From Candidatus Kerfeldbacteria bacterium (lineage in GTDB: Bacteria > Patescibacteriota > Patescibacteriia > UBA9570 > XYC2-FULL-38-9): a DNA stretch of 64,000 nt. How positions within the stretch are numbered: the stretch's first letter is position 1; each line of letters opens with the position of its first letter. Where the stretch lies: contig JACPGJ010000008.1 in NCBI GenBank assembly GCA_016182555.1, forward strand, positions 299,147 to 363,146, written 5' to 3'. Both the position numbers and the translations under genes were made by a program. The notes under the pieces were generated by a model. The model did not search any database. It was not told the DNA's origin and worked only from the letters and a program-made list of their open reading frames with translations. Of this stretch, positions 21,124-52,200 are shown piece after piece.

Positions 21124-21606
21124 CTATTTTCGAACACTCGTGATGCGAATACGATGACGAAGACCAAAGGTAACCACGGTAAGCCCGAGGAAGATAGAAC
21201 CCACGCTCCAGAGCATTCCATAATACGGCAAGAATATCCATTCATTAAATCCGGTTGGTGTATAAAAAATGAATTCAAACAATACTGCCGATATGATAAA
21301 CACCAACAAAAATGGAAAAATACTAAATTTCGCAATCACTAATGCATCATGAATGGATACGGGGTGATAATAGAATACTATTTGTTGTGTTAACCAGAGC
21401 CAAAATCCAGTGAAAAAAATAGGAGAAACGAGTAGAATATACATTCCAATTGGCACCAAGGGAAGGGAAACAATGGCGAGTATACAAAAGGAAAAAATAA
21501 TGAATGCGTTATACACAGCAAATAATAATCCAATATGATGAGCGTGCAGGCGTTGCTCGCGTAGCTTGTGACCAAATGAAACGCAATACTGTTGAATGGT
21601 CTTCAT
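21124..21606 (-). CDS. Hypothetical integral membrane protein (4-5 TM)
   Basis: Hydrophobic 160-aa ORF, no recognisable motif. Confidence 0.4.
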   Translation of the reverse strand: MKTIQQYCVSFGHKLREQRLHAHHIGLLFAVYNAFIIFSFCILAIVSLPLVPIGMYILLVSPIFFTGFWLWLTQQIVFYYHPVSIHDALVIAKFSIFPFLLVFIISAVLFEFIFYTPTGFNEWIFLPYYGMLWSVGSIFLGLTVVTFGLRHRIRITSVRK

Positions 21607-28653: not shown

Positions 28654-31600
28654 TTATTCTACCGTCACCGACTTGGCTAAATTGCGAGGTTGATCAACAT
28701 CATGGCCACGCAATACCGCCACATGATAGGCAAATAACTGCAATGGAATAATCGACAACATCGGTGTCAACATTTCTAATGTTTTGGGAATATATATCAC
28801 ATCATCTGCTAGTGCCTGCATTTCCGTATTCCCTTCTGTCGTAATCACTAAGACGCGTCCGTGGCGTGCTTTAAATTCTTGAATATTCGAAATATTTTTC
28901 TGATATACAGAATCTTCTGGTGCAATAAAAATAGAATAAAATCGATCATCAATTAACGCCAATGCACCATGTTTGGGTTCGCCGGCAGGATACCCTTCTG
29001 CATGCACATACGAAATTTCTTTCAACTTATGCGCCCCTTCCACTGCCACAGGGTAATTGTATTTTCGTCCAAGAAATAGTGCGTGATCATACGACGAATA
29101 TTTTTTCGCCATTTCTGCAATGTTGTCTGATTGTTGAAAAATGGTTTGCATTTTTTCTGGAATACCCATCAATTCTTTCGCAATGCGTTGACCGGTCACA
29201 AGTGACATATTTCGTTGACGCCCAAGCGCAAGTGTAAGTAATGCAAACATATTTAGCATACCAGTAAACACCTTTGTAGATGCAACTGCTTTTTCTGGAC
29301 CAGAATGAATATACATACCAGCATCAACTTCACGCGCAATAGTGGAACCAATCACATTCACAAGCCCAAAAGTGAATACCCCTCGTCGTTTTGCTTCTCG
29401 AAGTGAAGCAATCGTATCTGCTGTTTCACCGGATTGCGACACCAGCACCACTGCCGTTTTCTCATCCAAAACAGGTTTACGATAACGAAATTCTGAACCA
29501 AATTCAACCTCAACAGGAATTTCTGCATATTCTTCTAACATATATTCTCCTACTTTTGAAGCATACGAAGCCGTGCCGCAGGCAACAATAATAATCCGTT
29601 CAATATTCTTCCATCTTTTGATATTCTCATTAAATCCACCCAAATGCGCAATGCCATCTTCTTCAATCAAACGCCCACGCAATCCATTCAAGATAACCTC
29701 TGGCTGTTCAAGCATCTCTTTGAGCATAAAGTGTTCGTGGCCATTTTTTTCTGCTTGTGCCGCTGTCCATTCCACTCGACTCACTGGGTGTTCAATATGT
29801 TGCTGATCAAGCGTAGTGATTGTATATCCATCGCGCGTTACGGTGACCATTTCTGCTTCTTCCAAATACACTACCTCACGCGTGTGGGGTAAAATGGCAG
29901 AGAGATCTGAGGCAACAATGTATTCACCCACGTTCACAATACCAAGAATAAGAGGGCTGCCCAGGCGAGCGGCGACAATTTTATTTGGTTCACGTGAAGA
30001 AAACACTGCTAAACCATATGTACCTACCACCTCTTTGAGTGCACGACTCACGGCTTGCTCCAGCGAACATTTTTTGTAATACGCTTCTATAAGATGCGCT
30101 AGTACCTCGGTGTCTGTTGCGGTTTTAAATGTATGTTTCTCTTGAATGAGTCGCTGCTTGAGTTTGGAAAAATTTTCAATGATGCCATTGTGAATAATAA
30201 AAATTTCATCGCCGCAATCGGAATGCGGATGCGCGTTTGTGTCATTCGGTTCACCGTGAGTTGCCCACCGGGAATTGTGCGAAACTAAACCATTGGCAAT
30301 AAAATTTTCTGTTCCACTCACTTCTAAATCATAAACGTACGGAAATGTACTTCTCACTGTTTGAACTTCGGTAACTTTTTGAAATACAAGCTCCCCAGTA
30401 AATAACTGTTGTAATTGCTGAATGTAGGGGTGTGCACTCTGTTGAACAGACAGTAATTGAAAAAACTGTTCTATCGTACCTCGAGATGGGCTGCCCTTTC
30501 CATGCAATTGTCTATATGCTGCCCCACGAATACCAATTTTTTTTAATTGAGTGGCGATCTCTGTTTTATCCCACGGAAGCATAGCGTACGAGTTCGTCAC
30601 GTTCATAGCCGATTTTTGTTCTAACACTCGTTGTAATTTTTTTTGCTTCTCCGGTGCGGTGAATCCAATCTCTTTATGAAAACGTGTAATAGAATCCGCA
30701 CCACTCATGCTTACTATATACGTTGCATGCGGTCGTTTCTGCTGAATATTCTTTTTCTGAATACAGACTGAACTCATCATACCGAAACGTAATAACCACT
30801 GTTGAATTCTTCCAACAAAATCTCCATCAATCATTGCAAGAGAAACTTGACCAGCTCGAACACGAATCGTTCCTTCCGCATCAAAAATGCCTCGTAAAAA
30901 CTTGCGCAATTCTCGATCTGGTAATTGCCCAATTTCATCATAAAATGCACGTCGTCTCTCAAGAATATTTGTTTTGAGCCATGCCACCACTTCTGTACTA
31001 TTCACCTCTAATAAAAATGCAGCTACTCCTTTGAGCGGCACTATTCTTCCCGTAATACCAAATACGGTTTTTATCAATTCTCTATACTGCTCGAGAACAG
31101 CTTTTCGTGTATCTTTAAAACGCACACACCGCTCATGCGCATGGCCATCACCAATAAAATATCCTAAAATTTGCATCAATTCAGAGGATGATCGTCTTGG
31201 TAACTGCACAAAATTTCCATGAATACTATTCACTGGAGTCATGCCTTCCAGCGGAAAGGGCAAACTCAAGGTTTTTAAAAAGCGGCGCGTGGAATATTCT
31301 TGTGCATGTCTTTCTTGTCGTAAAAAATGATAAATGAAGGAGCTGGATATACCAGAAACATTTGCCAACCCACGTACATTTATCTCTTGCTGTGCCATTG
31401 TATTACGAACAACCTCTATTGTTTTTGATGTCAGTTGCCAATATCGCTGTGGTTCTTGGCATATAAAAGATATTTTTTGCCCGCGCAGAGATATTTTTTT
31501 TGGTGCACACAGAATATCCCCGGGTTGAATATCACGGGCATACTTTTCTTCTATATGACCATCACGAACAATAAGCATGCGATGATTCTCTGTAGAAGTA

Positions 31601-32007
31601 AATCTGCTGACAGAAGTACGAATTTGAAAAAGCTGCTCTGGAGCCGGATGCTTAAATAGGCGTGCCTTTTTTTTAATAAATTGATTTGTTGTTGTATCCA
31701 ATGAGAGGACATCTGCTTTCTCTGGCATATCTGCAATTTTCATCACCCGCCCGTTTGCTAATTGTATTAACGTATCTGGAACAAGGCAATGCGCAACGCC
31801 CACCGTTCCTTGCACCAAGTGCGTGTCCAACAACTCTTTTAAATTTCCAAGCTTTCCGGCCTTTTTATAGAGGTGCACCTTGCTGTTCTGTGTATCCATA
31901 ATAGCCAAACCCGCTGAATCGTAACCTCTGTATTCCATCCGCTTCAAGCCTTCAAGCAAAATAGGTTTTGCCTCTTGTTTTCCAATATAACCAATGATTC
32001 CACACAT
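28654..32007 (-). CDS. glmS: Glutamine--fructose-6-phosphate aminotransferase (GlmS) interrupted by a 505-aa intein with LAGLIDADG endonuclease domain
   Basis: N-term MCGIIGY (Cys1 nucleophile) ... GVAH | CLVPDTL...LVSHN | SRWATHG. Extein halves reconstitute the GlmS glutaminase motif; SIS domains and C-terminal ...VTVE present. Intein ~30274..31788 with LGYFIGDGHA and LRGIFDAEGT motifs. Confidence 0.93.
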   Translation of the reverse strand: MCGIIGYIGKQEAKPILLEGLKRMEYRGYDSAGLAIMDTQNSKVHLYKKAGKLGNLKELLDTHLVQGTVGVAHCLVPDTLIQLANGRVMKIADMPEKADVLSLDTTTNQFIKKKARLFKHPAPEQLFQIRTSVSRFTSTENHRMLIVRDGHIEEKYARDIQPGDILCAPKKISLRGQKISFICQEPQRYWQLTSKTIEVVRNTMAQQEINVRGLANVSGISSSFIYHFLRQERHAQEYSTRRFLKTLSLPFPLEGMTPVNSIHGNFVQLPRRSSSELMQILGYFIGDGHAHERCVRFKDTRKAVLEQYRELIKTVFGITGRIVPLKGVAAFLLEVNSTEVVAWLKTNILERRRAFYDEIGQLPDRELRKFLRGIFDAEGTIRVRAGQVSLAMIDGDFVGRIQQWLLRFGMMSSVCIQKKNIQQKRPHATYIVSMSGADSITRFHKEIGFTAPEKQKKLQRVLEQKSAMNVTNSYAMLPWDKTEIATQLKKIGIRGAAYRQLHGKGSPSRGTIEQFFQLLSVQQSAHPYIQQLQQLFTGELVFQKVTEVQTVRSTFPYVYDLEVSGTENFIANGLVSHNSRWATHGEPNDTNAHPHSDCGDEIFIIHNGIIENFSKLKQRLIQEKHTFKTATDTEVLAHLIEAYYKKCSLEQAVSRALKEVVGTYGLAVFSSREPNKIVAARLGSPLILGIVNVGEYIVASDLSAILPHTREVVYLEEAEMVTVTRDGYTITTLDQQHIEHPVSRVEWTAAQAEKNGHEHFMLKEMLEQPEVILNGLRGRLIEEDGIAHLGGFNENIKRWKNIERIIIVACGTASYASKVGEYMLEEYAEIPVEVEFGSEFRYRKPVLDEKTAVVLVSQSGETADTIASLREAKRRGVFTFGLVNVIGSTIAREVDAGMYIHSGPEKAVASTKVFTGMLNMFALLTLALGRQRNMSLVTGQRIAKELMGIPEKMQTIFQQSDNIAEMAKKYSSYDHALFLGRKYNYPVAVEGAHKLKEISYVHAEGYPAGEPKHGALALIDDRFYSIFIAPEDSVYQKNISNIQEFKARHGRVLVITTEGNTEMQALADDVIYIPKTLEMLTPMLSIIPLQLFAYHVAVLRGHDVDQPRNLAKSVTVE
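30274..31788 (-). mobile_element. GlmS intein (Cys1 ... His-Asn, +1 Ser) with double-LAGLIDADG homing endonuclease domain
   Basis: Residues 74-578 of the ORF; codons verified manually at both junctions (tgc at 31786-31788; aat/tcc at 30271-30276). Confidence 0.85.
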
Positions 32008-32113: not shown

Positions 32114-33325
32114 ATGCAGCCTGAAACACACTATCCCACAACCCAACAAGGAGTCGTTTTTGTATCTCTCAATACCGTTCGTTGTATGCAAAAATCGATT
32201 CGACCACTCAGGGATAATGAAATTTTAGTACAGATAGAATTAGCGGGCATTTGTGGTGCGGAATCTCGTGCAATTAAAGGTGGGAAAAAAGGTGTAAATG
32301 CTACTAGTGTCAAATCAGGGATTATTTTAGGTCATGAAGGCGTCGGGATTATTCATGCAATAGGTTCTGCTGTTTCCCATTATGCGATTGGTGATCGAGT
32401 AGCTATCCTCTCCCATGTACCTTGTGGAAATTGTACTTCTTGTACACAAGGCCATACGAATCGATGCCTAAAATTGGAACATATCGGCTTTACTAGAGAT
32501 GGCAGCGCTGCGGAATACATTATTCTTCCGGCTCAACATCCAACCATTATGAAAATTCCACATGATATTCCTGCAAAAATTGGAACACTCATAGAACCAC
32601 TATCCTGTGTACTCCATGGATTGCGACGCCTACATCCAGATTATTTTTATGCCCTCCATCAAAAACAGGTGCTCATTTTAGGAGCAGGACCGATTGGGAT
32701 GATTTGGGCACTTTTTGGATTGTCGAATGGAGCAACATCTATTACGATTGTTGATCCACAAAAAAATATTGATCTGATATACAAAGCTATTCCCCATATC
32801 TACAAAAATCGTGTTCACGTGTTATCTTCAATAGAGCATGTGCCAAAGAATTCTGTTGATACAGCAATCATAGCAAACTCTGATCCACAATCAGCGTCTC
32901 TATTACCTCCATACCTCACGCAGGAATCAGAAATCGTTTCTTTTGCTGGATTAAATGGATATTCACCAAAATTACAATCAGATGGCACCTATGGTTTTGA
33001 TCTAGATACAGATACATGGCAGTCACTCAACCCAATACTTCTCTCTGAAGTGCATTATAAAGAAATTCGCCATGCGATATTTTTAGACAATACGAAAATC
33101 ATTTATCTCGTGGGGTCATCGGGTTATACCATTGACGATGCAGAAATGGTATTGAAATTATTCATTAAGAAACCAAATCTTTATGAGTTATTTACTCCTA
33201 TAATCACCCATGAACTCAACCTTCGTGAAGCAGCAGAGGTCTATAGTCATTTTGGAGATCATGCTCAACTCTCACAAGGCACCTATAATGCAGATCAAGC
33301 AATACAAATGATTATTCGCCCATAA
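32114..33325 (+). CDS. Zinc-dependent medium-chain dehydrogenase (threonine/sorbitol dehydrogenase-like) with C-terminal extension
   Basis: GHEGVGIIHAIG, structural-Zn CGNCTSCTQGHTNRC, Rossmann LILGAGPIGM. Apart from the partial LCP gene at the right-hand edge, the only complete plus-strand CDS in the window. Confidence 0.8.
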   Translation: MQPETHYPTTQQGVVFVSLNTVRCMQKSIRPLRDNEILVQIELAGICGAESRAIKGGKKGVNATSVKSGIILGHEGVGIIHAIGSAVSHYAIGDRVAILSHVPCGNCTSCTQGHTNRCLKLEHIGFTRDGSAAEYIILPAQHPTIMKIPHDIPAKIGTLIEPLSCVLHGLRRLHPDYFYALHQKQVLILGAGPIGMIWALFGLSNGATSITIVDPQKNIDLIYKAIPHIYKNRVHVLSSIEHVPKNSVDTAIIANSDPQSASLLPPYLTQESEIVSFAGLNGYSPKLQSDGTYGFDLDTDTWQSLNPILLSEVHYKEIRHAIFLDNTKIIYLVGSSGYTIDDAEMVLKLFIKKPNLYELFTPIITHELNLREAAEVYSHFGDHAQLSQGTYNADQAIQMIIRP

Positions 33326-34522: not shown

Positions 34523-35827
34523 CTATTGCGCCTCTTCCGGTAATTCTTCTAATGTCACAGTCATCGTTTTTTCCTGGCCATCAGTAAATACTTTTATTTT
34601 CACCGTATCACCAACAACGTGGTCTTTAATCAGACTCGCCAACGAATGATCTTCATCCACTTTCGTTCCATCAACTTCGAGAATAATATCCCCTTCTTTC
34701 AAACCTGCTTTGTCTGCCGCGCTCTCTGGAATAACACCAGGTTCTTTCTGCGACCCTTTAATATAGGCGCCATAATCGTAGAGTAAATGGTTCACCTGGG
34801 CGACTTCAGGAGTAATTTGAACATAGCGAATACCAAGACCAGGGTGAATAATGCGACCATTTTTCTGAACACTATCGATAGCTGATTTTGCTTCGTTAAT
34901 CGCAATCGCAAACCCAATCCCTTCACCAGATCGATCCACGGCGGTGTTAATACCAATCACTTGTCCATTGATATTAATAAGCGGCCCACCAGAATTCCCT
35001 TGGTTAATTGCGGCATCAGTTTGAATTAAGCCACTATATTCACCACCCAAGTTACGGCTCAAACCGGAAACGATTCCTTTAGTGACGGTATTACTATATT
35101 CACCGAGTGTATTGCCAATAGCAATAACGGTATCACCAACAGCGGCTTGGTCAGAATCCGCTAATTCCAGGGGCGTTAACCCCATCGCATCAATTTTGAG
35201 AAGCGCTAAATCGGTAAGAGCATCGCGCGCTAAAATCTTTGCATCGTAACTCGTGGCGTCATCAAAAATAACCGTGTACTGCGCGTCATCAATATTCACC
35301 ACATGACGGTTGGTCAGAATCATACCATCGGCGGAAACCACAAACCCGCTTCCTTCTTGCACTTCAATTTCTTTATTTACATCATCTTCAAATGGCGTAT
35401 TTTGGTCAAATAGATTTCCACCATTGCCAAAAAATTGATTAAAAAATGGATCATTCTGAAATGGGCTCACGGAATTTTGTGACTGCAGCTTACTCGCTTT
35501 TTCACTCACCACAATGCTGACCACGGATGGTTTGGATTTTTCCACCACACTCTTCGTGGCGGATTCTTCTTGCACCTGAATGGTGTTCACGGTTTTTGAA
35601 ATTGGAGTAGAAGTTGCCTGACGGGATGCATACAGTTTCGTGAAACCGGGAATACGGTCAAGAATACCTGCATTATACAAAAAGAAAAAGAGCGCTGCGC
35701 CAAGCATACCAACAATCAATGATCTAAAGAGTCCACGACCTGATTGTGATGGATATTGATAGGAGCGTACCTCTGGTGGTTGGAGTGGTTCCATAAAATA
35801 GAAATTACTTATCCTGCTCATCGACAA
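34523..35827 (-). CDS. htrA: HtrA/DegP-family serine protease with PDZ domain
   Basis: TM anchor, catalytic triad context (TNRHVV, DLALLK, GNSGGPLININGQVIGINTA), C-terminal PDZ. Confidence 0.92.
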   Translation of the reverse strand: MSMSRISNFYFMEPLQPPEVRSYQYPSQSGRGLFRSLIVGMLGAALFFFLYNAGILDRIPGFTKLYASRQATSTPISKTVNTIQVQEESATKSVVEKSKPSVVSIVVSEKASKLQSQNSVSPFQNDPFFNQFFGNGGNLFDQNTPFEDDVNKEIEVQEGSGFVVSADGMILTNRHVVNIDDAQYTVIFDDATSYDAKILARDALTDLALLKIDAMGLTPLELADSDQAAVGDTVIAIGNTLGEYSNTVTKGIVSGLSRNLGGEYSGLIQTDAAINQGNSGGPLININGQVIGINTAVDRSGEGIGFAIAINEAKSAIDSVQKNGRIIHPGLGIRYVQITPEVAQVNHLLYDYGAYIKGSQKEPGVIPESAADKAGLKEGDIILEVDGTKVDEDHSLASLIKDHVVGDTVKIKVFTDGQEKTMTVTLEELPEEAQ

Positions 35828-36026
35828 CGGCTTGTAAATCAGCCACCATCAAATTCGCCACTTCATCTGGTAAGCCATGGAGTAATACGCCATTGCCAAT
35901 GGTATCAAACATTTTTCCTGGGCAGCTTAAACAATACGCTTCACCAAGGTATTTTTTCAATACCTCTTCAGATGCTGGATATTCTTCTAAAATTTCACCA
36001 AAAATAGTATCAAGTGTGACTTTCAT
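35805..36026 (-). CDS. DUF1858-like small redox protein (hybrid-cluster-protein-associated disulfide domain)
   Basis: Start taken at MKVTLDTIFGEILEEYP; CLSCPG motif; 74 aa. Confidence 0.5.
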   Translation of the reverse strand: MKVTLDTIFGEILEEYPASEEVLKKYLGEAYCLSCPGKMFDTIGNGVLLHGLPDEVANLMVADLQAVVDEQDK

Positions 36027-36048: not shown

Positions 36049-36645
36049 TTATTCTTTTGTGACAATCGCTTGCGCGCGCAGTATCGCCGCCTGTCGCCGA
36101 TCTGCCAAAAACACCGGTAATGCATTCCACACTGTCAACGCCACAATAGAAACTGATGGCACAATGATGAGCGTACTGATGAATTGATATTTCAGAAATG
36201 GGAGGCCCATGATATATGATTGTGCTAAACCATTCAGCGTATGTGGATACAACCCACCAATATGCCACACACCAAAGTTGGTCAAAAGGTAAAAGAAGAC
36301 GTTTCCTAATATGCCCATACCCGTCAATGCCAAGGCATGGCGGAACGGTTTCTTCTCACGTTTCCGCAACACCCAACCAAACACACCCATCGCTGTCCAC
36401 GCTGACCACGTGTAGAGCAGAATGCTCGTATTGCCAATAAGCATATCGGTCGTGGCAACCACGGCCAAACCAACAACAAGAGTCCACACACCACCAAGCA
36501 GTGATCCCGCCAACAGTGAAACAACCGTAATTGTTTCAATATTGGGGATATCTTTTAGCAGATAGCGGCCCACGGCTCCAAACAGGATAAGTATCGCCAC
36601 GGTGATGAGTTTTTTTTTCGTAAACTGTTCTGGGGATATACGCAT
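36049..36645 (-). CDS. Hypothetical polytopic membrane protein (ECF-transporter S-component-like)
   Basis: 198 aa, 5-6 TM, no diagnostic motif. Confidence 0.35.
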   Translation of the reverse strand: MRISPEQFTKKKLITVAILILFGAVGRYLLKDIPNIETITVVSLLAGSLLGGVWTLVVGLAVVATTDMLIGNTSILLYTWSAWTAMGVFGWVLRKREKKPFRHALALTGMGILGNVFFYLLTNFGVWHIGGLYPHTLNGLAQSYIMGLPFLKYQFISTLIIVPSVSIVALTVWNALPVFLADRRQAAILRAQAIVTKE

Positions 36646-36680: not shown

Positions 36681-39600
36681 TTACGCACATTTCGAATAGC
36701 CGCATCCATGGCACATCATGCATCCTTCAGCCATAGCGAGTACTGATCCGCACTCTGGGCATTCTGGTGCCACTCCGGCATCAGCAATAGAACTCGCTTT
36801 CATCGAAATGGTTGTTTGATGGGTGGTTGCCGTATCTGTTTGCGTGACGGTTACGGATTCTTGCGTTTTCACTGGGCTACTGTTGCCTAATAATTCATCT
36901 GCTGTTTGCAATGGTGCTGGCGTCGCGGCAAACTGTAAATTCAACGTGCCTTGAGCAGAATTCACATGGTTAGCCAGTACCTGAGCAATCGCATCAGCAA
37001 TCGAGAGAATTTGACCATTCTTTCCCCACGTTGGTGCTGGGCCACGAATACCTTTAATTTGATCTACCACTGTTTCTACTGGAATACCAGAACGCAATGC
37101 CAAAGAAACTAAACGGCAGATCGCTTCTGATTTCGCGGCAAAAAACCCGCCCGATTTTCCAATAGTCGCAAACACCTCAAATGGTCGGCCAGCTTCATCG
37201 TGGTTAATAGTCACGAACATTGTACCGTAACCGGTTTTAATTTTATAGGTGAATCCAGGCACCATCTCTGGGCGAGAACGTGGTGATGGAGGTGTTAAAC
37301 CAGGCCCCGTGTTCATTGGTTGGGCAACTGCAGGTGCTGCAGCAGCGAATTGAGCGGGAACCGCTGTTTGTACCTCTTCTTTTTTCACTTCTTTTTTATC
37401 ACCAGCATCTTTTTTATCTAAAGATTCCAATACAGAAATATCACGAGAGCCATCACGATAATAGGTCACCCCTTTGCATCCCATTTTGTACGCTTGCATA
37501 TACAATTCTTTCACCTGTTCCATGGTATGTTCATTTGGCGCGTTCACCGTTTTGGAAATAGATGAATCAGTATATTTTTGTGCCACAGCTTGCATGTTCA
37601 CGTGTTCCATTGGACTCAGCTCCTTGGCACTCACAAAATATGCTGGTTTTTCTTCTTCTGGCACATTCGGGTGTGCTTTTCGCCACTCTTCATATAATGG
37701 ATGGTAGACAATATGTTCTCCTAAACGATCTTTCCGTTTGAAAGCAAAATCATATACCGGTTCAATACCAGAACTGACGCCGGCAAGAATACTCGTTGTA
37801 CCAGTTGGTGCTTGGGTAAGAATCACCGCATTACGCACGCCGAATTGTGCAATATCGGCTTGTAAGTCGCGCGGTAAACGTTGAATAAACTTCCCTTGCA
37901 TATATTTTTCGCTTTCAAAACCGGGAAACGCTCCTTTCTCTTTCGCAATTTCCATAGACATGCGGTAGGATTCATCGCGAATCACCCGATAGACCTCTTC
38001 ACACCATGCGACAGCTTCTTCTGATCCATAACGAATCTTCATTTTAATGAGCGCATCGCCCAAACCCATGGTACCCAAACCGGTACGACGAATTTTTTTC
38101 TGCATCTCTTCATTTTCTTTGAAGAAGTACGGAGTTGAATCAATCACGTTATCTAAGAAGCGAATCGCCGTGTGCACTGTTTCTTTGAGCGCAGCGGTAT
38201 CAAAGACCCCATCGTTCACAAATGCTGCCAAATTCACCGCACCCAAATTACACACACTCCATGCGCCAAGACCTTGTTCCCCACAATTGTGCACTATTAA
38301 CCCATTGGCTGCAAAAGAATGTGTCACTGGTTCTGTCAGATCATACACCATTTCCTGACCAAGATGCTCTAACCCGACAAATGTCGCTACAAATTTTTGT
38401 GTATATGGCCCATCGGTATATTGACTAAGTAATTTTGTTAGCTTTTGTTGTTTTGCAGATGATAAAAATCCTACGGATGTAGCAAATATCTTCAACCCGG
38501 CCTTGCTAATCACCAAATCATGTTGCGCCTGACAAGGATATGATGCTAATCCACCGCGACCATCGGGCAGTTCTCGCACTTGTTCCATGCGCCGATTCGC
38601 ATACAAACGACTCACGATACCAAAATTTAACAGTAATTGTTGCACTTCTTTCAATAGATCTTCTGAAATAGAAGTGAGCCGAATACTCACACCTTTTTCT
38701 GGTGAACCAGCGACATGTCCATCGGCAGTAAACAACCCTTGCAAAAATCCCTTCTGCATTTCTGCTGTGCCTTCCCATACTGGTTGTGGCACACGCAACT
38801 TCGATTCTACCGTCATCCCTACGTTAGTGAATATCTGATTCAACCGTTGGGATGAAATCCGAGCTTCATCACGGCCGGCAACTTCGGCAACAGTCACCGC
38901 AACAGATGAATGTTTGCCATTGGTATTGTTGGTTGAAGCGTTAATCGCACCATTAACGGCTTGAACAAGCCGCGGTGCTACTTCTCGTTTTTCTTCACCA
39001 AAAAATGACAGTACCGCCGTATGCTTAGATTGATTAAAATGACCATCACCGATAAACCAGCCTAACACTTGACCCCAAGATTGATCACCGGTGGTCCCAA
39101 AACCGCCAACGCGATCAAGTAATAATATCTGATCACCTGTTTGCAAATGCTGCGCTTCTACCCAACCACGTGCTGTGCGTACTTGATGATTGGCCGTCAG
39201 TTTGAGTTCATATCCTTCTTTGGTTTGTAATCGATACACATCTTTGATGCCCGTTTCAATAATTTGCGATGTGCGCTCCGTTGACTGTGCACCCAAACGA
39301 CTATCAATAGTCAAGTTCACTTGCTGTTGCGCCTCGTATAATGCTTTGATCGTTTTGAGCCCGTCGGTCGTTGAAACACGCGTATCGCCCGTGACGCACG
39401 GATTCACACAAATAATTTTTTCAAAATACCACGTATTTGATTCCTTGTTATAACGCTCCATAAACACCAAGCCCGGCTCACCAGATGCATGAGCAGATTC
39501 GCAAATCAAATCCCACAATGTGCGGGCTTTGATTGTTTTATAGACTTTACCTCCCCATTTTAAATCCCAATCTCCGTTCTGTTCCACGGCTTCCATGAAC

Positions 39601-40205
39601 CGATCAGAAACACAGACAGAAAGATTGGCATTCGTGACCAAACCCATGGTGCGTTTTACGGTAATAAACTCTTCAATGTCTGGGTGATCGTCATTCAGCA
39701 TTAACATCAGTGCACCGCGGCGAGATCCACCTTGAATCACCAAGCCAGTCGCATGCGAATACAACCCACCAAAAGACACCGCACCAGAAGCAGTACCATT
39801 CACTCCTTTGACATACGCACCACGTGGACGCAGTGAAGAAAGGTTCACACCCACGCCGCCACCACGAGACATAATTTCGACCATGGTTTTCACTGAATCA
39901 AAAATGCCACCGCGACTATCTTCTGGAGATGGGATGACATAACAATTATAGAATGTGAGGTCTACACCAGAACCGGCGCCAGCCAAAATACGACCACCGG
40001 GTAAAAACTTGAATCCTTCCAAAGCCTGATAAAACTTCTCTTCCCATTCTTTCTTTTTTTCAACCGTGGTTTCAATGCTGGCAATACCGCGAGCAACGCG
40101 GTGCCACATCTGTTCGGGGGTATCTTCAACACGACTCCCGTTTTCATCTTTGAGTGCGTAGCGATCAAAAAACACTTTTTGGCGCAATCCAGTAAGGTGC
40201 TCCAT
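36681..40205 (-). CDS. nrdJ: Adenosylcobalamin-dependent (class II) ribonucleotide reductase NrdJ, interrupted by a 371-aa intein
   Basis: Active-site motif split as ...ICVNP | CVTGDTRV...LIVHN | CGEQGL (NPCGEQ of class II RNR). The gene start (40203-40205) was confirmed by eye to be cat/ATG. C-terminal CxxC...CxxC tail (CPECGS...CMMCHGCGYSKCA). Intein 38286..39398 with LGWFIGDGHF and LQGLFTADGHV. Confidence 0.9.
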   Translation of the reverse strand: MEHLTGLRQKVFFDRYALKDENGSRVEDTPEQMWHRVARGIASIETTVEKKKEWEEKFYQALEGFKFLPGGRILAGAGSGVDLTFYNCYVIPSPEDSRGGIFDSVKTMVEIMSRGGGVGVNLSSLRPRGAYVKGVNGTASGAVSFGGLYSHATGLVIQGGSRRGALMLMLNDDHPDIEEFITVKRTMGLVTNANLSVCVSDRFMEAVEQNGDWDLKWGGKVYKTIKARTLWDLICESAHASGEPGLVFMERYNKESNTWYFEKIICVNPCVTGDTRVSTTDGLKTIKALYEAQQQVNLTIDSRLGAQSTERTSQIIETGIKDVYRLQTKEGYELKLTANHQVRTARGWVEAQHLQTGDQILLLDRVGGFGTTGDQSWGQVLGWFIGDGHFNQSKHTAVLSFFGEEKREVAPRLVQAVNGAINASTNNTNGKHSSVAVTVAEVAGRDEARISSQRLNQIFTNVGMTVESKLRVPQPVWEGTAEMQKGFLQGLFTADGHVAGSPEKGVSIRLTSISEDLLKEVQQLLLNFGIVSRLYANRRMEQVRELPDGRGGLASYPCQAQHDLVISKAGLKIFATSVGFLSSAKQQKLTKLLSQYTDGPYTQKFVATFVGLEHLGQEMVYDLTEPVTHSFAANGLIVHNCGEQGLGAWSVCNLGAVNLAAFVNDGVFDTAALKETVHTAIRFLDNVIDSTPYFFKENEEMQKKIRRTGLGTMGLGDALIKMKIRYGSEEAVAWCEEVYRVIRDESYRMSMEIAKEKGAFPGFESEKYMQGKFIQRLPRDLQADIAQFGVRNAVILTQAPTGTTSILAGVSSGIEPVYDFAFKRKDRLGEHIVYHPLYEEWRKAHPNVPEEEKPAYFVSAKELSPMEHVNMQAVAQKYTDSSISKTVNAPNEHTMEQVKELYMQAYKMGCKGVTYYRDGSRDISVLESLDKKDAGDKKEVKKEEVQTAVPAQFAAAAPAVAQPMNTGPGLTPPSPRSRPEMVPGFTYKIKTGYGTMFVTINHDEAGRPFEVFATIGKSGGFFAAKSEAICRLVSLALRSGIPVETVVDQIKGIRGPAPTWGKNGQILSIADAIAQVLANHVNSAQGTLNLQFAATPAPLQTADELLGNSSPVKTQESVTVTQTDTATTHQTTISMKASSIADAGVAPECPECGSVLAMAEGCMMCHGCGYSKCA
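38286..39398 (-). mobile_element. NrdJ intein at the catalytic-cysteine site, with LAGLIDADG endonuclease domain
   Basis: Residues 270-640 of the ORF; junction codons verified manually (tgc 39396-39398; aat 38286-38288, tgt 38283-38285). Confidence 0.85.
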
Positions 40206-40279
40206 AAATAGTAACGAATTTAGCGAGTTATATAGGTTTGGCGTGATGCAAGCATCATATCAAACCGGTATCTCCCGTT

Positions 40280-40295
40280 TTACTATATATAGTGT
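40280..40295. promoter_or_regulatory. NrdR box 1 upstream of nrdJ
   Basis: ttACTATATATAGTGt matches the NrdR-box consensus acaCwAtATaTwGtgt at 14/16 positions. Confidence 0.7.
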
Positions 40296-40311
40296 TTATT
40301 TATTGCTGTGG

Positions 40312-40327
40312 TGCCTATATATAGTAT
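40312..40327. promoter_or_regulatory. NrdR box 2 upstream of nrdJ
   Basis: tgcCTATATATAGTat; centre 32 bp from box 1, matching the typical tandem spacing of NrdR boxes. Confidence 0.6.
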
Positions 40328-40379
40328 TTTCTCTAGTGCTGTTGTATTCTAGCATATTTCTTTTTGAGTCACAATTATC

Positions 40380-40400
40380 AAAAAACCGCCTTTCGGCGAC
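40380..40400 (-). terminator. Possible short intrinsic terminator after cobO (minus strand)
   Basis: Minus strand CGCC-GAAA-GGCG followed by GTTTTTT; only a 4-bp stem. Confidence 0.3.
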
Positions 40401-40470
40401 TTCGATGTGGATAAGTCTTACTTTATCCTGTGACACCACTATATATGGTGGTGTATACGCTGTCAGCTTT

Positions 40471-41037
40471 CTAATGCTCAACACCAAAACGCGGAATAAA
40501 ATCTTCACCGTATGGACTTTTTGTGGTCGTCATCACCGTAATTAAATCTGCTGCATTTAATAACTCTTTAGGAGCATTCCGACCAGTCAGTATCACCTCT
40601 GTTTCCTGATGCTTATTATCTAAAAAATCCAACATATCAGTCGTTTTAATCAACCCATGGTGCATGGCCGTATTCACTTCATCAAGAATCAAAATATCTG
40701 GGCGTTTCATCACCATGGCTCGCCGTGCATAATCCAACCCTTGGTTTGCCAAGTAGACATCCATAGCGGACGGATCGTGCAAATTCGTGAATTCTGGTGT
40801 ACCGAACTGAACAATATCTACATACGGTTTTAAACGATCATGCGCCAAGAGTTCACCAAAATCTTTATGGCCCTTGAGAAATTGAATCACTAGTACATTC
40901 ATCTTTGCTCCGGCTGCACGAAGAGCTACGCCCAACGCTGCGGTCGTCTTGCCTTTTCCATCACCCGTATACACATGGATATAGCCCAAGCGTTTTTTCG
41001 GGTTGAATTCGTTTGTGGGTCGTTTATGCCAATACAT
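40471..41037 (-). CDS. cobO: Cob(I)alamin adenosyltransferase (CobO/BtuR family)
   Basis: P-loop YTGDGKGKTTAALG and overall 188-aa CobA/CobO architecture. Confidence 0.85.
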   Translation of the reverse strand: MYWHKRPTNEFNPKKRLGYIHVYTGDGKGKTTAALGVALRAAGAKMNVLVIQFLKGHKDFGELLAHDRLKPYVDIVQFGTPEFTNLHDPSAMDVYLANQGLDYARRAMVMKRPDILILDEVNTAMHHGLIKTTDMLDFLDNKHQETEVILTGRNAPKELLNAADLITVMTTTKSPYGEDFIPRFGVEH

Positions 41038-41039
41038 AG

Positions 41040-41522
41040 TTACCCCTTCTTTTTACCATATTTTCTCTGTTTTGGGGAGAGCTTCTTCAGTGCATCAGCA
41101 AACTCGTCCACATCTTCAAATGAACGATACACAGAAGCAAAACGAATATACGCTACTTTATCTAATTTTCGTAAGTATTTCATCGCGATTTCTCCAATAG
41201 TCGTCGTAGAAATATGATCCTTTCTGGCTTTTGCTTGTATTTCTTGTTCAATTTGTTGCACTACCCGTTTAAGGCGTTCTGGAGAAATAGGGCGTTTTTG
41301 TAAAGGTAATTTCAAACTGCGAACGAGCTTCTCTTTATCATACGCTTCTTGGGTACCGTTCACCTTATCTACAGTCAACGTCAAAATTTCAATTTCTTCA
41401 ATGGTAGAATAGCGAAAATGACAACTTGGGCACTCCCTGCGTCGTCGAATAGTTGAACCATCTTCAATCACGCGAGTATCAATAACTCGAGTGTCTTCAG
41501 TGTGGCAGGACAAGCAGCGCAT
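41040..41522 (-). CDS. nrdR: Transcriptional repressor NrdR
   Basis: Zn ribbon MRCLSCHTEDTRVIDTR...CPSCHFRYSTIEEIE plus ATP-cone (KRPISPERLKRVVQQIEQEI). Confidence 0.95.
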   Translation of the reverse strand: MRCLSCHTEDTRVIDTRVIEDGSTIRRRRECPSCHFRYSTIEEIEILTLTVDKVNGTQEAYDKEKLVRSLKLPLQKRPISPERLKRVVQQIEQEIQAKARKDHISTTTIGEIAMKYLRKLDKVAYIRFASVYRSFEDVDEFADALKKLSPKQRKYGKKKG

Positions 41523-41541: not shown

Positions 41542-43230
41542 CTACCTGGGATTTAAACTCTGTAGTGTTGCTTCTTGAGGAGGTTGTTCATTCAATAATA
41601 CAGTTTTGATAAGTGAAAAAAATATATCTGAATATTTCTCCCATAACGCATAGAGAATAACACTAGCATCGTCCCGAACAGCAGAATCAACAGTGTAGCC
41701 ACTATTGACCAGCATGGCATCCATCAAAGCAATATCCACCGCCCCTCCTCGTTGAATGGCATCTCTACCCCGTTTAGTAGTTGCTACAACATCGCTCAAA
41801 GATTCCGGACGGACAATGCCTGGTTTCAAAACACGTTTTTTGCCATTCATATTTGCTGCCCAAAATGTTCCGTTGACTTGTGTAATATTTTTATCACCGT
41901 TCGGTTCTTGGCCTATCACTAATCCAGATTGTTGCACTGGAATTCCCGGTATAGCCTCTATCGTTTGATTAATATCGGCAATACGTTTTACTTCTTTCAG
42001 CAATTTTTCTGCTGTTCTTTGATTTAAAAAATCTGGATTAAAGAAAACTTGAATATGAGCTTGCTCTACTACTAAGCCCAAAAAATCAACTGTATGCCTC
42101 ACGAACTCTTGCAAACCCGACACACCACATCCTCTATGAAGATATTCAGCACGTGCGGAAGACGCAACATTTCTTATCCTTGCTACATCCACTGCAATAG
42201 GCTGATATCCTTTTTTAGACATTTCTGCATCTTGTCTTGCTAAAACGTCGGAGACTGTTAAAGCATTTTGAGTTGTAGAATTTTTAGAAACTTTATTAGT
42301 GTGTAGAACTACTACTCTATATGCTGAATCGGCAACTTGTTCATGATCTTCACCGTCATGGGTAACCTGTGCAAGGGCATCTCTCACAGTACACACCTGT
42401 TGCAACCCAGGAACTGTTTCCGGTATATTTGTGGATTCTAAATTTTGTATGCTCTCTTTCAGTAATGGATAATAATAATCTCTAATAGCGGCATTTAAAA
42501 GTGCATGGCATTCCTGCCTATCCGCAATCATATTTTCTTCTGTTTGTTTCAATGCATTCTTGTTTTCCAAAAAAACATAACGAATCGCTTGCAAAACTTC
42601 TGATAATTGCTGCACCACTGCTTGAATATTTTTTGTATCTACATGTATCAATGCATGAAAACGTCGTACTCTTGCTTCAGTGCGTTTTGGAACAATGTGT
42701 TGACCAAAAAATTCCATAACTGCAGCAGGCGCGGAATCAGAAAATCCAACAGTAGCTAAACTATCCAGAAGCGTTTCTTCCCATAGATGATGTTGTATTG
42801 GATCTCCGCCTTCACTCGACAGCGGTAACGGCATATCGAGTATTTGTTTCAGGCTGATTAATAGAGTTTTTAATTGTTGTTCGTATGCCTTATTTTTTGC
42901 ATTTCCTGTTTGTGTGCGTGAATATTCCGCAAGAAGTTGATCAAGAATAATCACACGGCGCAGCAGCGATTTTTTTAAAGCCCATGTTGCTTCAGCCTCT
43001 GGATTAGACTGTGTCAATTGTTGACCCAATAAATCCAATTCACATAAAATAGTTTGATCAGCTTCGACAATCCCCTGCTGCAATCGCTCTGGATCACACG
43101 CAGGAATCTGGCGAATTGCTTGTTCGAATGCTACTGCTGACTGTCCTGCTTTGTTTCTTTCTCTTCGTGTTGGTAATTCAGACATAAAAATAGCGATAGT
43201 GTTCTTTCTACTATTGAAATCTGTATACAA
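41542..43230 (-). CDS. Hypothetical 562-aa cytoplasmic protein of unknown function
   Basis: No TM, no signal peptide, no motif I recognise; patches of ~27-32% GC. Wedged between ftsZ and nrdR with 5-19 nt spacers. Confidence 0.5.
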   Translation of the reverse strand: MYTDFNSRKNTIAIFMSELPTRRERNKAGQSAVAFEQAIRQIPACDPERLQQGIVEADQTILCELDLLGQQLTQSNPEAEATWALKKSLLRRVIILDQLLAEYSRTQTGNAKNKAYEQQLKTLLISLKQILDMPLPLSSEGGDPIQHHLWEETLLDSLATVGFSDSAPAAVMEFFGQHIVPKRTEARVRRFHALIHVDTKNIQAVVQQLSEVLQAIRYVFLENKNALKQTEENMIADRQECHALLNAAIRDYYYPLLKESIQNLESTNIPETVPGLQQVCTVRDALAQVTHDGEDHEQVADSAYRVVVLHTNKVSKNSTTQNALTVSDVLARQDAEMSKKGYQPIAVDVARIRNVASSARAEYLHRGCGVSGLQEFVRHTVDFLGLVVEQAHIQVFFNPDFLNQRTAEKLLKEVKRIADINQTIEAIPGIPVQQSGLVIGQEPNGDKNITQVNGTFWAANMNGKKRVLKPGIVRPESLSDVVATTKRGRDAIQRGGAVDIALMDAMLVNSGYTVDSAVRDDASVILYALWEKYSDIFFSLIKTVLLNEQPPQEATLQSLNPR

Positions 43231-43235
43231 TAAAC

Positions 43236-44399
43236 CTACATCATCTTCTTTCTAATGAAGGCTGGGATATCTAAATCTGAATCATCAGAATTATCGACTT
43301 TATCTTGATCCATAATAGACCGAGCAGCTGGAGCAGATGAAGATGGTGCTGGTGTGGAAGCAGATTGTGGCTGTTCATCCATGCTACGGTTCAAACTGCT
43401 GATATCACGAAATGGATTCGAAGCCTGTATTTTTGTTGTAGAACGAGCAACATTACCGAAACCCGTGGCCACGACCGTCACCTTCAACTCATCTTTCATA
43501 CTTTCATCAATAACTGAACCGAAAATAATGCGCGCGTTCGGGTCAGCAGATTCGGTAATAATCCGTGCCGCTTCATTCACTTCAAACATACCCAAATTTG
43601 CTCCACCCGTGATGGTAAACAGAATTCCCTTCGCGCCATCAATGGACATTTCAAGTAATGGGCTGTCGATGGCTGCTTTAGCGGCGTCAATTGCGCGATT
43701 TTCGCCACTCGCTTGACCGATGCCCATGAGGGCAGAACCGGCGTTGGACATGACGGACTTCACATCGGCAAAGTCGACGTTGATTAAACCCGGAACGGTG
43801 ATTAAATCAGAAATACCTTGCACACCTTGGCGCAGTACTTCATCCACAATACCAAACGCTTCAAGCAAAGATGTTTTCTTATCAATAATTTGGAGTAAGC
43901 GGTCATTCGGAATAGTAATGATGGTATCTACTTGTTCAGAGAGTTGATGATAAGCCGCTTCCGCAATTTGCCGACGTTGTGCTCCTTCAAATTCAAATGG
44001 TTTTGTCACAACAGCGACAGTAAGCGCACCAGCTTCGCGAGCAAGTTGCGCTACACGTGGCCCAGCGCCAGAACCCGTACCTCCACCCAAACCACAGGTA
44101 ATGAACACCATATCTGCACCTTTGATGGCTTCTTTAATTTCATCTTGGTTTTCTTCGGCCGCCTTATATCCCATTTCCGGATCCATACCCGCACCTAACC
44201 CACGAGTGGTGGTTTGGCCAATATGAATTTTCTGTTTTGCTGGCGAATGATGCAATGCTTGGGCATCCGTATTCACAGCGATAAATTCCACGCCTTTGAG
44301 TCCGGCGTCGATCATACGTGAGATGGCTGAACCTCCTGAACCACCAACACCGATCACTTTAATTTTGGCAAAGGTTTCGATTGCTGGTTTCACTTCCAT
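43236..44399 (-). CDS. ftsZ: Cell division GTPase FtsZ
   Basis: [13 protein letters not shown], tubulin signature [11 protein letters not shown]-terminal conserved tail DIPAFIRKK. Confidence 0.97.
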
Positions 44400-49213: not shown

Positions 49214-52200
49214 TTAAGGAGTAATAGTATACCACGTTCCTCCTGGGTCAAATTGACTCGTTATACCATAATTATAACAAGAACATTCAGCATTTGAAAT
49301 ATCTTCACACGCATCAAATATCGCTGTCGTGTCGGTATATGCCCCTTCCCCATCATATTCTAAATGAGCATAAATGGAAGCGGTTTGGGAATCGTCAGGG
49401 TTATTCGCATCGACTTTCCACATATACGTAAAGGAATTCGCTGGGCAGAAGAAATGCTGGTTGACGGTATCCCAACAAGTTCCGCCTTCTTGGTCATAAT
49501 ATGCATTATCTTCGGGTGCAGACGGGCAATCCTGCACATGTTCTTCTCCCTCATAAACCCACGGCGTTGATCCGGCGTTCCAAGGGTCAGCTTGATCGGC
49601 AGCATAGAAGATATTGTACTGATCGGTTGGCAATGTTTGACCGAATAGATTACCCAGTGCTCCTTGCCAAGATGGCCACACGCTGGTCGTCATCGTTTTC
49701 ACATACGAACCAAATGTATCACTTTGTGGTCGTGGATAATACCCGTGTTGCGCATAAAAATCATTTGCCAAATTACTAATGGTGGTAATGTCATTCACGC
49801 GCTTGGTGTCACGAATCAATTTCTCTTGGTCAGAATTTTCACATTCCGCATGGCTCAAATTCATGTTAAACCGAACGTTATTGATCAATTGATCGGCAAT
49901 TTTCAATAGGGTCTCTTCGTCGCTAAACGTAAAAAGATAGATGTTATTATAAATTGTTCCATCTAATACATTGCTAGCAGCAACATAATAACTTAATCCA
50001 TCTTGTACCGCTTCATAGCCGTTTACTTGCAATGAAGAGACCTCCCCTGGGTTTGGTACATTTTGAGCATACCATTGGTCTGGGGTGAGGTCTTCGGTGT
50101 TTGGATACACACGAATACCAACCACCTGTTCTTCATTTTCTGGGTTCACAAACAAATATTGTCGGAAAAAATCTCCATCCGGATCAGTGGTAATAATTGG
50201 TTCTTCTGTTAAAGTAGGTAAGCCATTATCTTTACAGTAAAGCAAGTCAAAATTTTGCCGTAAATCATCACTTTCATCTGTATTCGCATATTCCCACACA
50301 TTGTCTTCTCCGCAGAAAAATACATTCACATTGGCTGTAACATCATCCACAGACCAATCTGCTTCCGTGGTGGGAGTTGCCGTGACCGTAATGCCATCTT
50401 CGGCATGATTTTCATCACCGGCCGTGACCGTTTGGGTTTCGGCATTCGGATCACTGCCTAGCTCAACCCAAGCGGTATTATTACAACGCGCATCGTCTTT
50501 ATATGGGCTCCAGGTATATTCCCAACCCATGATATTTGTGGGAATAATTTCTTGATCATCTGATGTATGCATACTCACCGTAAATGTGGTTTGTGCTCCC
50601 GATGAAGTAAACGTATACGTAGCTGTATCACCTTCCGAAGAACTCCCATTGTCATTATTGATAAGTACCAGATGATCTGGTTCACATTCGTTAGCTGCCG
50701 TCATGAAATAGATCTCTTGGGTGCCTTGCTCCACAGCCAGCGTATTGGCTTCGCTCACGATTCCGGTGTCTGTATCTGTATTACTCACGAACGTCAATCG
50801 ATATACCGTATTTGTTTTCCAGCCATCATTTGGCGTCACGGTGATTGTTTTTCCATCTGCGCTATCAACCGTAATCGCAACAACCGTATCATTAGCAATA
50901 CCTTCAGAAAAATCATCGGTTGAGTAACCATCTTCATAGTCTAATGCGTTGAGTCTGACCGTATCGGTTGCCGAATCGCCGGTCGCCAAAAAACCAGTCA
51001 TCGGTTCACTAAATACCGCACTAAATTCTCTATTTGGACAAACCTCCGTATCACCATTGACTGGATCAGAAGAAACAAATGTTGGTCTTTCTGCACAATA
51101 GGTTTCGCCAGTATCATCCACGACACATTCTCCATCACTACCACACACAGTATCTTCTGTTCCTTCCGTACATTCACCGCTAGAATCATCATCGCACACA
51201 CCATCTACACAATAATATCCCTCTTCACAATCATCGGCGGTGATACAAGATGTACCAAAATCTAACCCATTGCTCAAACAAGCATTGACCGACACCACTG
51301 CTGGTCCAGAGGTGGCGCCATACGGAACAGTGGCAGAAGATTTGCCTGTTCCCACATACGTATAGTTGTCACCACTAATATAATCGATGGTATCATCAAA
51401 CGTACTTTCCGGATCAGCACCTTCTACTACCTCATCAGTAAATAAATCTCCTGTACTTTGGCCATCGGCTGGGTTTCCAAATTGGTCACCCATAAATGTG
51501 ATGGAATCGCCATCCTGAGTTCCCTCCGCTGAAGCGGCATATCCTTCAACCGAAGAGAGCTTACACAATACCGGTACTCCGGAATCTGGCACATCGGCAC
51601 CACTGCTACACTGTGCCGTGGTAGAAAAAGTTTTATCATCATTACTATTATACCCATTATTGGAAACCACCACCGCATAAGACTGCCCTGTATCTAACGC
51701 TTCCGGTACATTGGCAATAATTTGCGTATTTGACCACCCATCGGTGCAATACAATGCCGCTTCCTCACCACCAAATGTCACCGAGGCATCGGAATCATAA
51801 GATCCAAAAAAGCAGCCGTTAATCGTTGTGGGTCCACCAGCAGGACCGGAATCTTGTACAATGCTTGTCACCACCGGTGTGCACACACCTTCTTCAGAAC
51901 AGGTAGCTTGGTCACTGCCGCAGGATTCCTGACATTGTTCATCTGTTGTACAGGTATTACAAAACTCCGCAGCTTGGCAGATACCATCTCCAGAACAGCA
52001 GCCGCTGCCGCATTCATTATTGGCGCTACAAGAAACCGAAAACTCTAATGAGTTGGAACAATATTCTGAAGCAGCAGCACAATCCACATCTCCACCTTGT
52101 GTTACGGCACGGAACCCATCTTCTCCACTCACCGCACCAGAGGCTACTTCTGTACTTACGCGCTCTGGTGTCCAGGCAGTTGCTTCTTCGGACGCAGCAA

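Follow-up and report, generated by a model that had tools for sequence, protein, structure and literature searches.

The 64-kb window analyzed here (the whole 64,000-nucleotide stretch of Candidatus Kerfeldbacteria contig JACPGJ010000008.1) contains, in minus-strand order, ftsA, ftsZ, an open reading frame (ORF) of 562 amino acids, nrdR, cobO, a 265-bp spacer, nrdJ, a gene for a membrane protein of family DUF6580 with the fold of an energy-coupling factor (ECF) S component, a gene for a small DUF1858 protein, and htrA (Table 1). Our subject is the segment from nrdR to the DUF1858 gene, which appears to join a ribonucleotide reductase (RNR) that depends on adenosylcobalamin (AdoCbl) to its repressor, its cofactor enzyme, and a candidate transporter. 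An earlier reading made from the letters of this DNA without database searches (the sequence-only reading) had named NrdR, a cob(I)alamin adenosyltransferase, and a class II RNR in this order on the minus strand, and profile matches agreed with both the order and the identities. NrdR and NrdJ passed the cutoffs of the NCBIfam equivalogs TIGR00244 (168.6 bits, cutoff 124.65) and TIGR02504 (576 bits, cutoff 399.95), respectively. All four zinc cysteines of NrdR (C3, C6, C31, and C34) are present, and the residues that contact DNA in the cryo-electron-microscopy structure of Streptomyces coelicolor NrdR bound to DNA, namely R12, D15, R17, R26–R29 (the RRRR motif), and R37 (PMC9110341), are intact. 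The adenosyltransferase, whose gene begins 2 nt past the nrdR stop codon, is a clear member of PF02572 (177 bits; the CobA/CobO/BtuR family), with a P-loop GxGKGKT and 43 further columns that are invariant among 13 homologues from the candidate phyla radiation (CPR), and its adenosyltransferase function is predicted from this membership.

Table 1. Coordinates of the genes and predicted regulatory features at the nrdR–cobO–nrdJ locus (positions are those of the window; aa, amino acids).
Feature	Position	Strand	Description
562-aa ORF between ftsZ and nrdR	41542–43230	minus	no Pfam/NCBIfam match
ftsZ	43236–44399	minus
nrdR	41040–41522	minus	dATP/ATP-sensing RNR-gene repressor, 160 aa; TIGR00244, PF22811 Zn-ribbon, PF03477 ATP-cone
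cobO	40471–41037	minus	cobO/cobA/btuR-type ATP:cob(I)alamin adenosyltransferase (predicted), 188 aa; PF02572
Box U	40436–40451		solitary NrdR-box-like palindrome, minus-strand CCACCATATATAGTGG, inside 20-bp palindrome CACCACCATATATAGTGGTG (40434–40453)
DnaA box	40406–40414	minus	consensus TTATCCACA (gene strand), sole exact copy in 64 kb
Terminator-like hairpin	40380–40400	minus	GUCGCC-GAAA-GGCGG + U6, resembling an intrinsic terminator; between DnaA box and −35
Predicted nrdJ promoter	40346–40374	minus	−35 TTGTGA (40374–40369), 17-bp spacer, extended −10 TGcTAGAAT (40354–40346)
NrdR box, promoter-proximal (predicted)	40312–40327		forward TGCCTATATATAGTAT, gene strand ATACTATATATAGGCA; about +13 to +28 from inferred start
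NrdR box, distal (predicted)	40280–40295		forward TTACTATATATAGTGT, gene strand ACACTATATATAGTAA; about +45 to +60 from inferred start
nrdJ	36681–40205	minus	class II AdoCbl-dependent RNR, 1174 aa including intein; TIGR02504, PF02867, PF00317, PF12637
nrdJ intein	38286–39398	minus	371 aa (aa 270–640), LAGLIDADG endonuclease; PF14890, PF14528
DUF6580 gene	36049–36645	minus	membrane protein, ECF S-component fold; PF20221
DUF1858 gene	35805–36026	minus	small protein with CxxC motif (CLSC), probable start MKVTLDT; PF08984, TIGR03980

Upstream of nrdJ, the sequence-only reading had pointed to two 16-mers as NrdR boxes at the canonical phasing, and both were found exactly where it had placed them. 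On the gene strand each box carries all six positions (C4, A6, A8, T9, T11, and G13) that are highly conserved in the NrdR box consensus, and their centers lie 32 bp apart (~three helical turns) across a 16-bp linker, linkers between NrdR boxes being predominantly 15–16 bp (PMC13584703). The same work shows that NrdR requires two boxes and leaves the solitary box 0 of E. coli unbound (PMC13584703). The box centers precede the nrdJ ATG by 82–114 bp and closely follow a conserved extended −10. Scanning the 64 kb for ACACTATATATAGTGT with at most three mismatches returned two sites (the distal box at 40280–40295 and box U at 40436–40451), against 0.12 expected. A position weight matrix (PWM) built from other loci only, with the window excluded, scored the tandem boxes at 19.5 and 10.9 and box U at 17.3, and the three best intergenic matches of the whole 64 kb were confined to 172 bp upstream of nrdJ. 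Two matches scoring at least 10 at a spacing of 30–34 bp occurred once in the window and in none of 500 dinucleotide shuffles. The same PWM scan found no NrdR box upstream of nrdR in the window. It did return an isolated match, ATACTATTTGTTGTGT (21375–21390; score 13.5), within a 160-aa ORF that carries no annotation; the match lacks a partner box and probably arose by chance.

The pairing is shared by relatives, which we retrieved with CobO and DUF6580 homologues and designate by L numbers. Ten independent CPR loci (L081–L083, L085, and L087–L092; CobO identity 55–79%) group nrdR, cobO, nrdJ, and DUF6580, usually beside ftsA–ftsZ, and in nine of them (L081, L082, L083, L085, L087, L088, L090, L091, and L092) a box pair 32–33 bp apart lies 5′ of nrdJ. 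In the remaining locus, L089, the genes run nrdR–nrdJ–cobO–DUF4430–DUF6580, and nrdR is preceded by a palindrome resembling the box and by a DnaA box. We aligned the cobO–nrdJ spacer of the window with those of five relatives (alignment A3, six loci), and the proximal core ACTAnATnTAG and the distal core CACnAnATnTnG were invariant. NrdR and DnaA boxes were also sought in L095, L098, and L099, and none was found there. Taken together, the box pair reads as a real and non-random feature, predicted to be the NrdR operator of nrdJ.

Alignment A3 also revealed the arrangement in which the operator is embedded. Its invariant blocks are, in order, a palindrome just after cobO, the DnaA box TTATCCACA, the TTG of the −35, the TGnTAnAAT of the extended −10, and the cores of both NrdR boxes; between the blocks, as in the leader to the ATG, the sequence has diverged. 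The RNA of the region containing the terminator-like hairpin (40372–40472, minus strand) folds at −27.6 kcal/mol (z = −3.5). Some relatives have an extra gene that separates cobO from this regulatory block (same-strand in L081, opposite-strand in L083/L084), and the DnaA box, promoter, and NrdR boxes always travel with nrdJ. Because the spacer contains a terminator hairpin and a conserved promoter, and because relatives carry inserted genes at this point while the block moves with nrdJ, we read nrdR–cobO–nrdJ as probably not one operon and predict two adjacent units. The boxes most likely control the nrdJ–DUF6580(–DUF1858) unit, with nrdR–cobO transcribed separately. Here and below, we infer protein–DNA binding and the use of promoter and terminator from sequence. 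An Rfam scan of the whole 64 kb at gathering thresholds returned no match to any known RNA, tRNAs and riboswitches included. The possibility that a B12 riboswitch or another known leader RNA precedes nrdJ was rejected, since an E-value search of 40150–40520 gave one chance-level match (TMV_UPD-PK3, E = 8.7, 10.1 bits, cutoff 34).

The consensus DnaA box occurs once in the window, where ~0.5 exact copies are expected by chance, and it is invariant in 10 relatives, lying upstream of nrdJ in L081–L083, L085, L087, L088, and L090–L092 and upstream of nrdR in L089. It is positioned 32 bp upstream of the −35 in the window and 12–33 bp upstream of it in the six loci; in L083, CTATCCAC directly abuts TTATCCACA. 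In E. coli, the targets of DnaA include nrdA and, by chromatin immunoprecipitation sequencing, also nrdD (PMC4009431, PMC11317965), and by this analogy nrdJ is probably subject to replication-coupled control by DnaA, which we regard as a reasonable reading. The DnaA box as the mark of a replication origin was rejected: it is a single box, the GC skew is uniformly negative, and the genes lie on one strand (all assigned genes of the window are on the minus strand, with the sole exception of an alcohol-dehydrogenase-like ORF at 32114–33325). Box U, which lies between cobO and the DnaA box, has all six critical NrdR positions and is conserved in the six loci. A search for a partner 32 bp from box U found this position taken up by the DnaA box, whose sequence does not match the NrdR pattern.

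The DUF6580 protein supplies the other part of the argument. Its AlphaFold model is confident (predicted local distance difference test score of 95) and shows the six-helix fold of an S component. A profile of 36 DUF6580 members had a single sequence match in the PDB (E = 7e-5), to the chain named 'Membrane protein' of 6FNP, the ECF-CbrT B12 transporter; single-sequence phmmer searches of the PDB with DUF6580 proteins returned nothing meaningful. The window protein matches PF20221 only, and the CbrT fragment matches PF12822 and not PF20221. On Gram-negative-type contigs, cobalamin riboswitches RF00174 (86.7 bits) and RF01689, AdoCbl-II (90.8 bits), located at L094 4661–4833 and L096 4897–4976 (the latter standing for L096/L097), precede operons of a BtuB-like, TonB-dependent receptor and DUF6580. 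In L095 the gene order is nrdJ, a PduO-type adenosyltransferase, DUF6580, and thioredoxin, in which the PduO is a non-orthologous replacement of CobO with the same partners, and a cobO–DUF4430–DUF6580 triad occurs in L089 (8001–9794) and L099 (1–5402). The residues invariant in the family are R27, N35, D67, NFGVW at 123–127, Y133, and P149. Database annotation describes DUF6580 only as a putative transport protein, and we found no relevant literature on DUF6580, on NrdR in Patescibacteria, or on the adenosyltransferase in Patescibacteria. Because of the CbrT profile match, the S-component fold, and the riboswitch, BtuB, PduO, and CobO contexts, we consider DUF6580 a probable corrinoid (B12) transporter, with its substrate deduced from these sequences and the model.

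How special is this neighborhood among CobO loci? As a background we used 80 CobO loci (L001–L080), all non-CPR, from the matches listed by a search with a CobO alignment, which had responded to a generic P-loop pattern. Among those listed, nrdR or nrdJ lay near CobO in one of the 80 (L049, labelled Woesearchaeota, with the order nrdR–nrdJ–cobO) and DUF6580 in none. A metagenome search with the single CobO protein gave three loci. In the sequence-only reading, NrdJ was conjectured to be the organism's only RNR. The window itself, which covers 11% of the contig, contains no further RNR, no cob/cbi genes, no ECF module, and no riboswitch. In L099, which is Patescibacteria-like, class III nrdD–nrdG and a NUDIX gene adjoin cobO–DUF4430–DUF6580, so that, to judge by gene content, the B12 module and an anaerobic RNR occur together in some relatives. 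A search seeded with the NrdD of L099 found no protein of the window's contig among its best 120 matches, all of which were at least 66% identical (the list being filled by closer relatives).

These observations converge on a model that we hold with fair confidence, in which the locus is a module for deoxynucleotide supply, conserved among Kerfeldbacteria-like Patescibacteria and most likely organized as two adjacent transcription units. The nrdR–cobO unit, possibly read through from the upstream ftsZ and 562-aa ORF, would end at the hairpin and U-run, and the nrdJ–DUF6580(–DUF1858) unit would start near 40339 from a promoter of the sigma-70 type that has an extended −10. A rise in dATP relative to ATP would bring an NrdR tetramer onto both boxes, which lie three helical turns apart and just past the −10, and the tetramer would block transcription of the RNR and the transporter jointly; the DnaA box would probably add replication-coupled control, as at E. 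coli nrdAB. DUF6580 would bring in corrinoid, CobO would adenosylate it to AdoCbl, and NrdJ would use the AdoCbl after intein splicing, with the small CxxC protein perhaps supplying reducing power. The pairing of B12 salvage with a B12-dependent RNR, which the sequence-only reading had proposed, thus stands as a module and is strengthened by the downstream DUF6580 gene, whereas the single 'self-contained' nrdR–cobO–nrdJ operon that it had drawn gives way before the terminator hairpin, the conserved promoter, and the genes inserted in relatives. Of the B12 transporters and riboswitches that it had suggested looking for, the window contains the candidate transporter and no riboswitch. The DnaA box, box U, the terminator, the nrdJ intein, and the DUF6580 gene were absent from that reading.

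A number of observations weigh against parts of this model. The NrdR boxes lie downstream of the predicted −10 and do not overlap it, and the more distant L085, L087, L088, and L090 have a TGACA-16/17-TATACT promoter whose −35/−10 spacer is occupied by the first box. The promoter scan overall returned no more sites than in shuffles, and the terminator hairpin was missed by a simple terminator scan. No second DnaA box was seen by eye beside 40406–40414, and in E. coli DnaA favors double boxes, with many single consensus boxes staying unoccupied (PMC4009431, PMC11317965). CobO stays under the cutoffs of its NCBIfam equivalogs (136 bits for TIGR00708, cutoff 167.75; 154.6 bits for NF004637, cutoff 185). 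As for transport, the fold of DUF6580 is by itself silent on substrate, its invariant residues include no Cys or His cobalt ligand of the kind found in BtuM, and the energizing module of an ECF transporter (EcfA/EcfT) was not found in the window.

We weighed this model against alternatives for each of its parts. That the boxes are chance AT-rich palindromes or TATA-like promoter sequence, and no NrdR operators, is extremely improbable: although the six-position rule alone is uninformative (24 matches in the window, 22 expected in shuffles), the box cores resemble TATATATA, and a PWM match of 13.5 falls in the unrelated ORF at 21375, the canonically spaced pair never arose in shuffles, the best intergenic matches cluster beside the RNR gene, the critical positions and the spacing are retained in nine further loci despite diverged linkers, and a cognate NrdR with intact reading residues adjoins the boxes. 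A single nrdR–cobO–nrdJ operon, in which the boxes would form an operator or roadblock inside one transcript and NrdR would thus also regulate itself, strikes us as quite unlikely. All of the genes lie close together on the same strand, with nrdR and cobO only 2 nt apart; L089 and L049 have nrdR, nrdJ, and cobO tightly packed and an NrdR box on the nrdR side; Streptomyces nrdRJ offers a precedent; and read-through of a weak terminator is possible. What decides for two units is the terminator hairpin with its U-run and the invariant promoter in the spacer, the extra genes between cobO and nrdJ in relatives (where boxes, promoter, and DnaA box remain with nrdJ), and the lack of any detected box upstream of nrdR in the window. 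We give about even odds that box U is only the stem-loop of the cobO terminator, or its relic, and binds no NrdR. Box U stands alone at a distance of 124 bp from the pair, and NrdR requires two boxes and does not bind E. coli box 0 (PMC13584703); its distance to the pair varies (114–125 bp); its RNA folds as a 7-bp hairpin just past cobO; and in L081, L083, L091, and L092 the palindrome is GC-armed with a T-run directly after it and is probably their terminator. Yet its loop retains the A6, A8, T9, and T11 of the NrdR pattern, for which a hairpin loop has no need; no T-run adjoins it in the window, where a separate terminator comes next; and in the six loci the distance from its center to the start of the DnaA box is always 29.5–30.5 bp despite differing spacer sequence. 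Terminator stem, operator, or both are thus about equally credible roles for box U, and that an NrdR-like palindrome at a fixed distance from a DnaA box may double as terminator and operator is a speculation.

For DUF6580, the competing view is that it carries another substrate (another vitamin, cobalt, or a nucleoside) and that its adjacency to nrdJ is incidental, for which the silence of the fold on substrate leaves room. We find this unlikely, given that CbrT was the sole PDB sequence match of the DUF6580 profile, that two distinct classes of cobalamin riboswitch stand ahead of the BtuB-like receptor–DUF6580 operons, and that, across four distinct gene architectures, DUF6580 is found next to adenosyltransferases of both the CobO and the PduO type and next to DUF4430. 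On balance we lean toward regarding DUF6580 as a third, undescribed family of S-component-like corrinoid transporters beside CbrT and BtuM, which it would resemble in its working and under neither of which it is filed. In Gram-negatives this family would stand behind riboswitches and BtuB-like receptors, and in CPR it would be wired to NrdR (and probably DnaA) in place of a riboswitch, so that import is switched together with NrdJ, the only known B12 consumer.

The intein of nrdJ splits the active-site motif as VNP|CGEQ, with boundaries CVTGDT...LIVHN|C as judged by alignment to the intein-free NrdJ of L092, and removal of amino acids 270–640 restores the NPCGE motif. L091 has an insertion at the same position of NrdJ, and L092 and the other relatives have none (NrdJ of 749–827 aa). 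GlmS (GATase and SIS domains; 28654–32007, minus strand) likewise bears an intein with a LAGLIDADG domain, which places two intein-carrying essential genes inside 12 kb.

At the downstream end of the module, the DUF1858 protein falls just under its family cutoffs (PF08984, 30.1 bits against 32.2; TIGR03980, 31.6 against 44.95). Its gene is kept 3′ of DUF6580 in most relatives, and thioredoxin (L095 7568–7855) takes the equivalent slot in L095; the CxxC protein may be redox-disulfide-like and serve as a reductant for NrdJ or for cobalamin. Elsewhere the window also encodes a thioredoxin reductase (18789–19730) and two DsbA-like proteins. At the upstream end, the position of the 562-aa ORF is a variable insertion slot, because unrelated proteins of ~890 aa occupy it in L088 and L090 and it is empty in the other loci. 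Farther upstream, a 2240-aa ORF (49214–55936, minus strand) precedes the ybeY–dagK–ftsA–ftsZ block, and in all close relatives the matching slot holds proteins of 2230–2524 aa with T4SS_pilin and Big_5 domains (precomputed annotation).

Genomes of CPR bacteria, or Patescibacteria, are ~0.6 Mb, and these organisms depend on neighbors for cofactors. The source of the window is a groundwater bacterium and one of these small-genome forms. The locus offers a concrete case of how one CPR lineage may secure DNA precursors, with an O2-independent, B12-dependent RNR set beside the enzyme for B12 activation, a probable importer, and a nucleotide-sensing repressor. Two predictions follow from it, namely that DUF6580 is a corrinoid transporter and that RNR is under dual control by NrdR and DnaA outside model organisms; the well-supported functional prediction for DUF6580 is the most useful by-product.

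Each part of the module has a counterpart in a known system. The nrdRJ locus of Streptomyces coelicolor (PMC9110341, PMC13584703) likewise links nrdR to a class II RNR gene and has two partially palindromic 16-bp boxes ~three helical turns apart, and its NrdR shares the Zn-ribbon, the ATP-cone, D15, R17, and the RRRR motif. In the window, by contrast, cobO separates nrdR from nrdJ, a terminator seems to be followed by a promoter belonging to nrdJ itself, the box pair is positioned past the −10, the region also has a DnaA box and a solitary third box, and no box was found upstream of nrdR. A closer likeness in function comes from the B12 auxotroph Lactobacillus delbrueckii, in which, according to Santos et al. 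(PMC5997447, citing Rodionov et al. 2009), the transporter and adenosyltransferase of the cluster nrdJ–cbrS–cbrT–pduO feed NrdJ, so that as described there one locus unites a class II RNR with a corrinoid adenosyltransferase and a B12 ECF S component, as appears to be the case here. Unlike that cluster, the window has an adenosyltransferase of CobA/CobO type and not of PduO type (which L095 has), DUF6580 as its S component and not PF12822 as in CbrT, NrdR within the cluster, and no ECF module seen in the 64 kb. The E. coli nrdAB promoter (PMC4009431, PMC11317965) resembles that of nrdJ in having NrdR boxes as well as the consensus TTATCCACA ahead of the −35; it serves a class Ia enzyme and its double DnaA box is bound cooperatively, whereas here the enzyme is class II, most loci have a single box, and DnaA binding is predicted. 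BtuM, the solitary S-component-like B12 transporter of Gram-negatives (PDB 8C7P and 8OVV), has no detectable sequence similarity to DUF6580. Current understanding is not overturned, as NrdR boxes, nrdR–nrdJ linkage, and clusters of nrdJ with adenosyltransferase and transporter genes have already been documented elsewhere. The individual parts are well known, with precedents in Streptomyces nrdRJ, Lactobacillus nrdJ–cbrS–cbrT–pduO, and the control of E. coli nrdAB by NrdR and DnaA, and it is their combination that is new.

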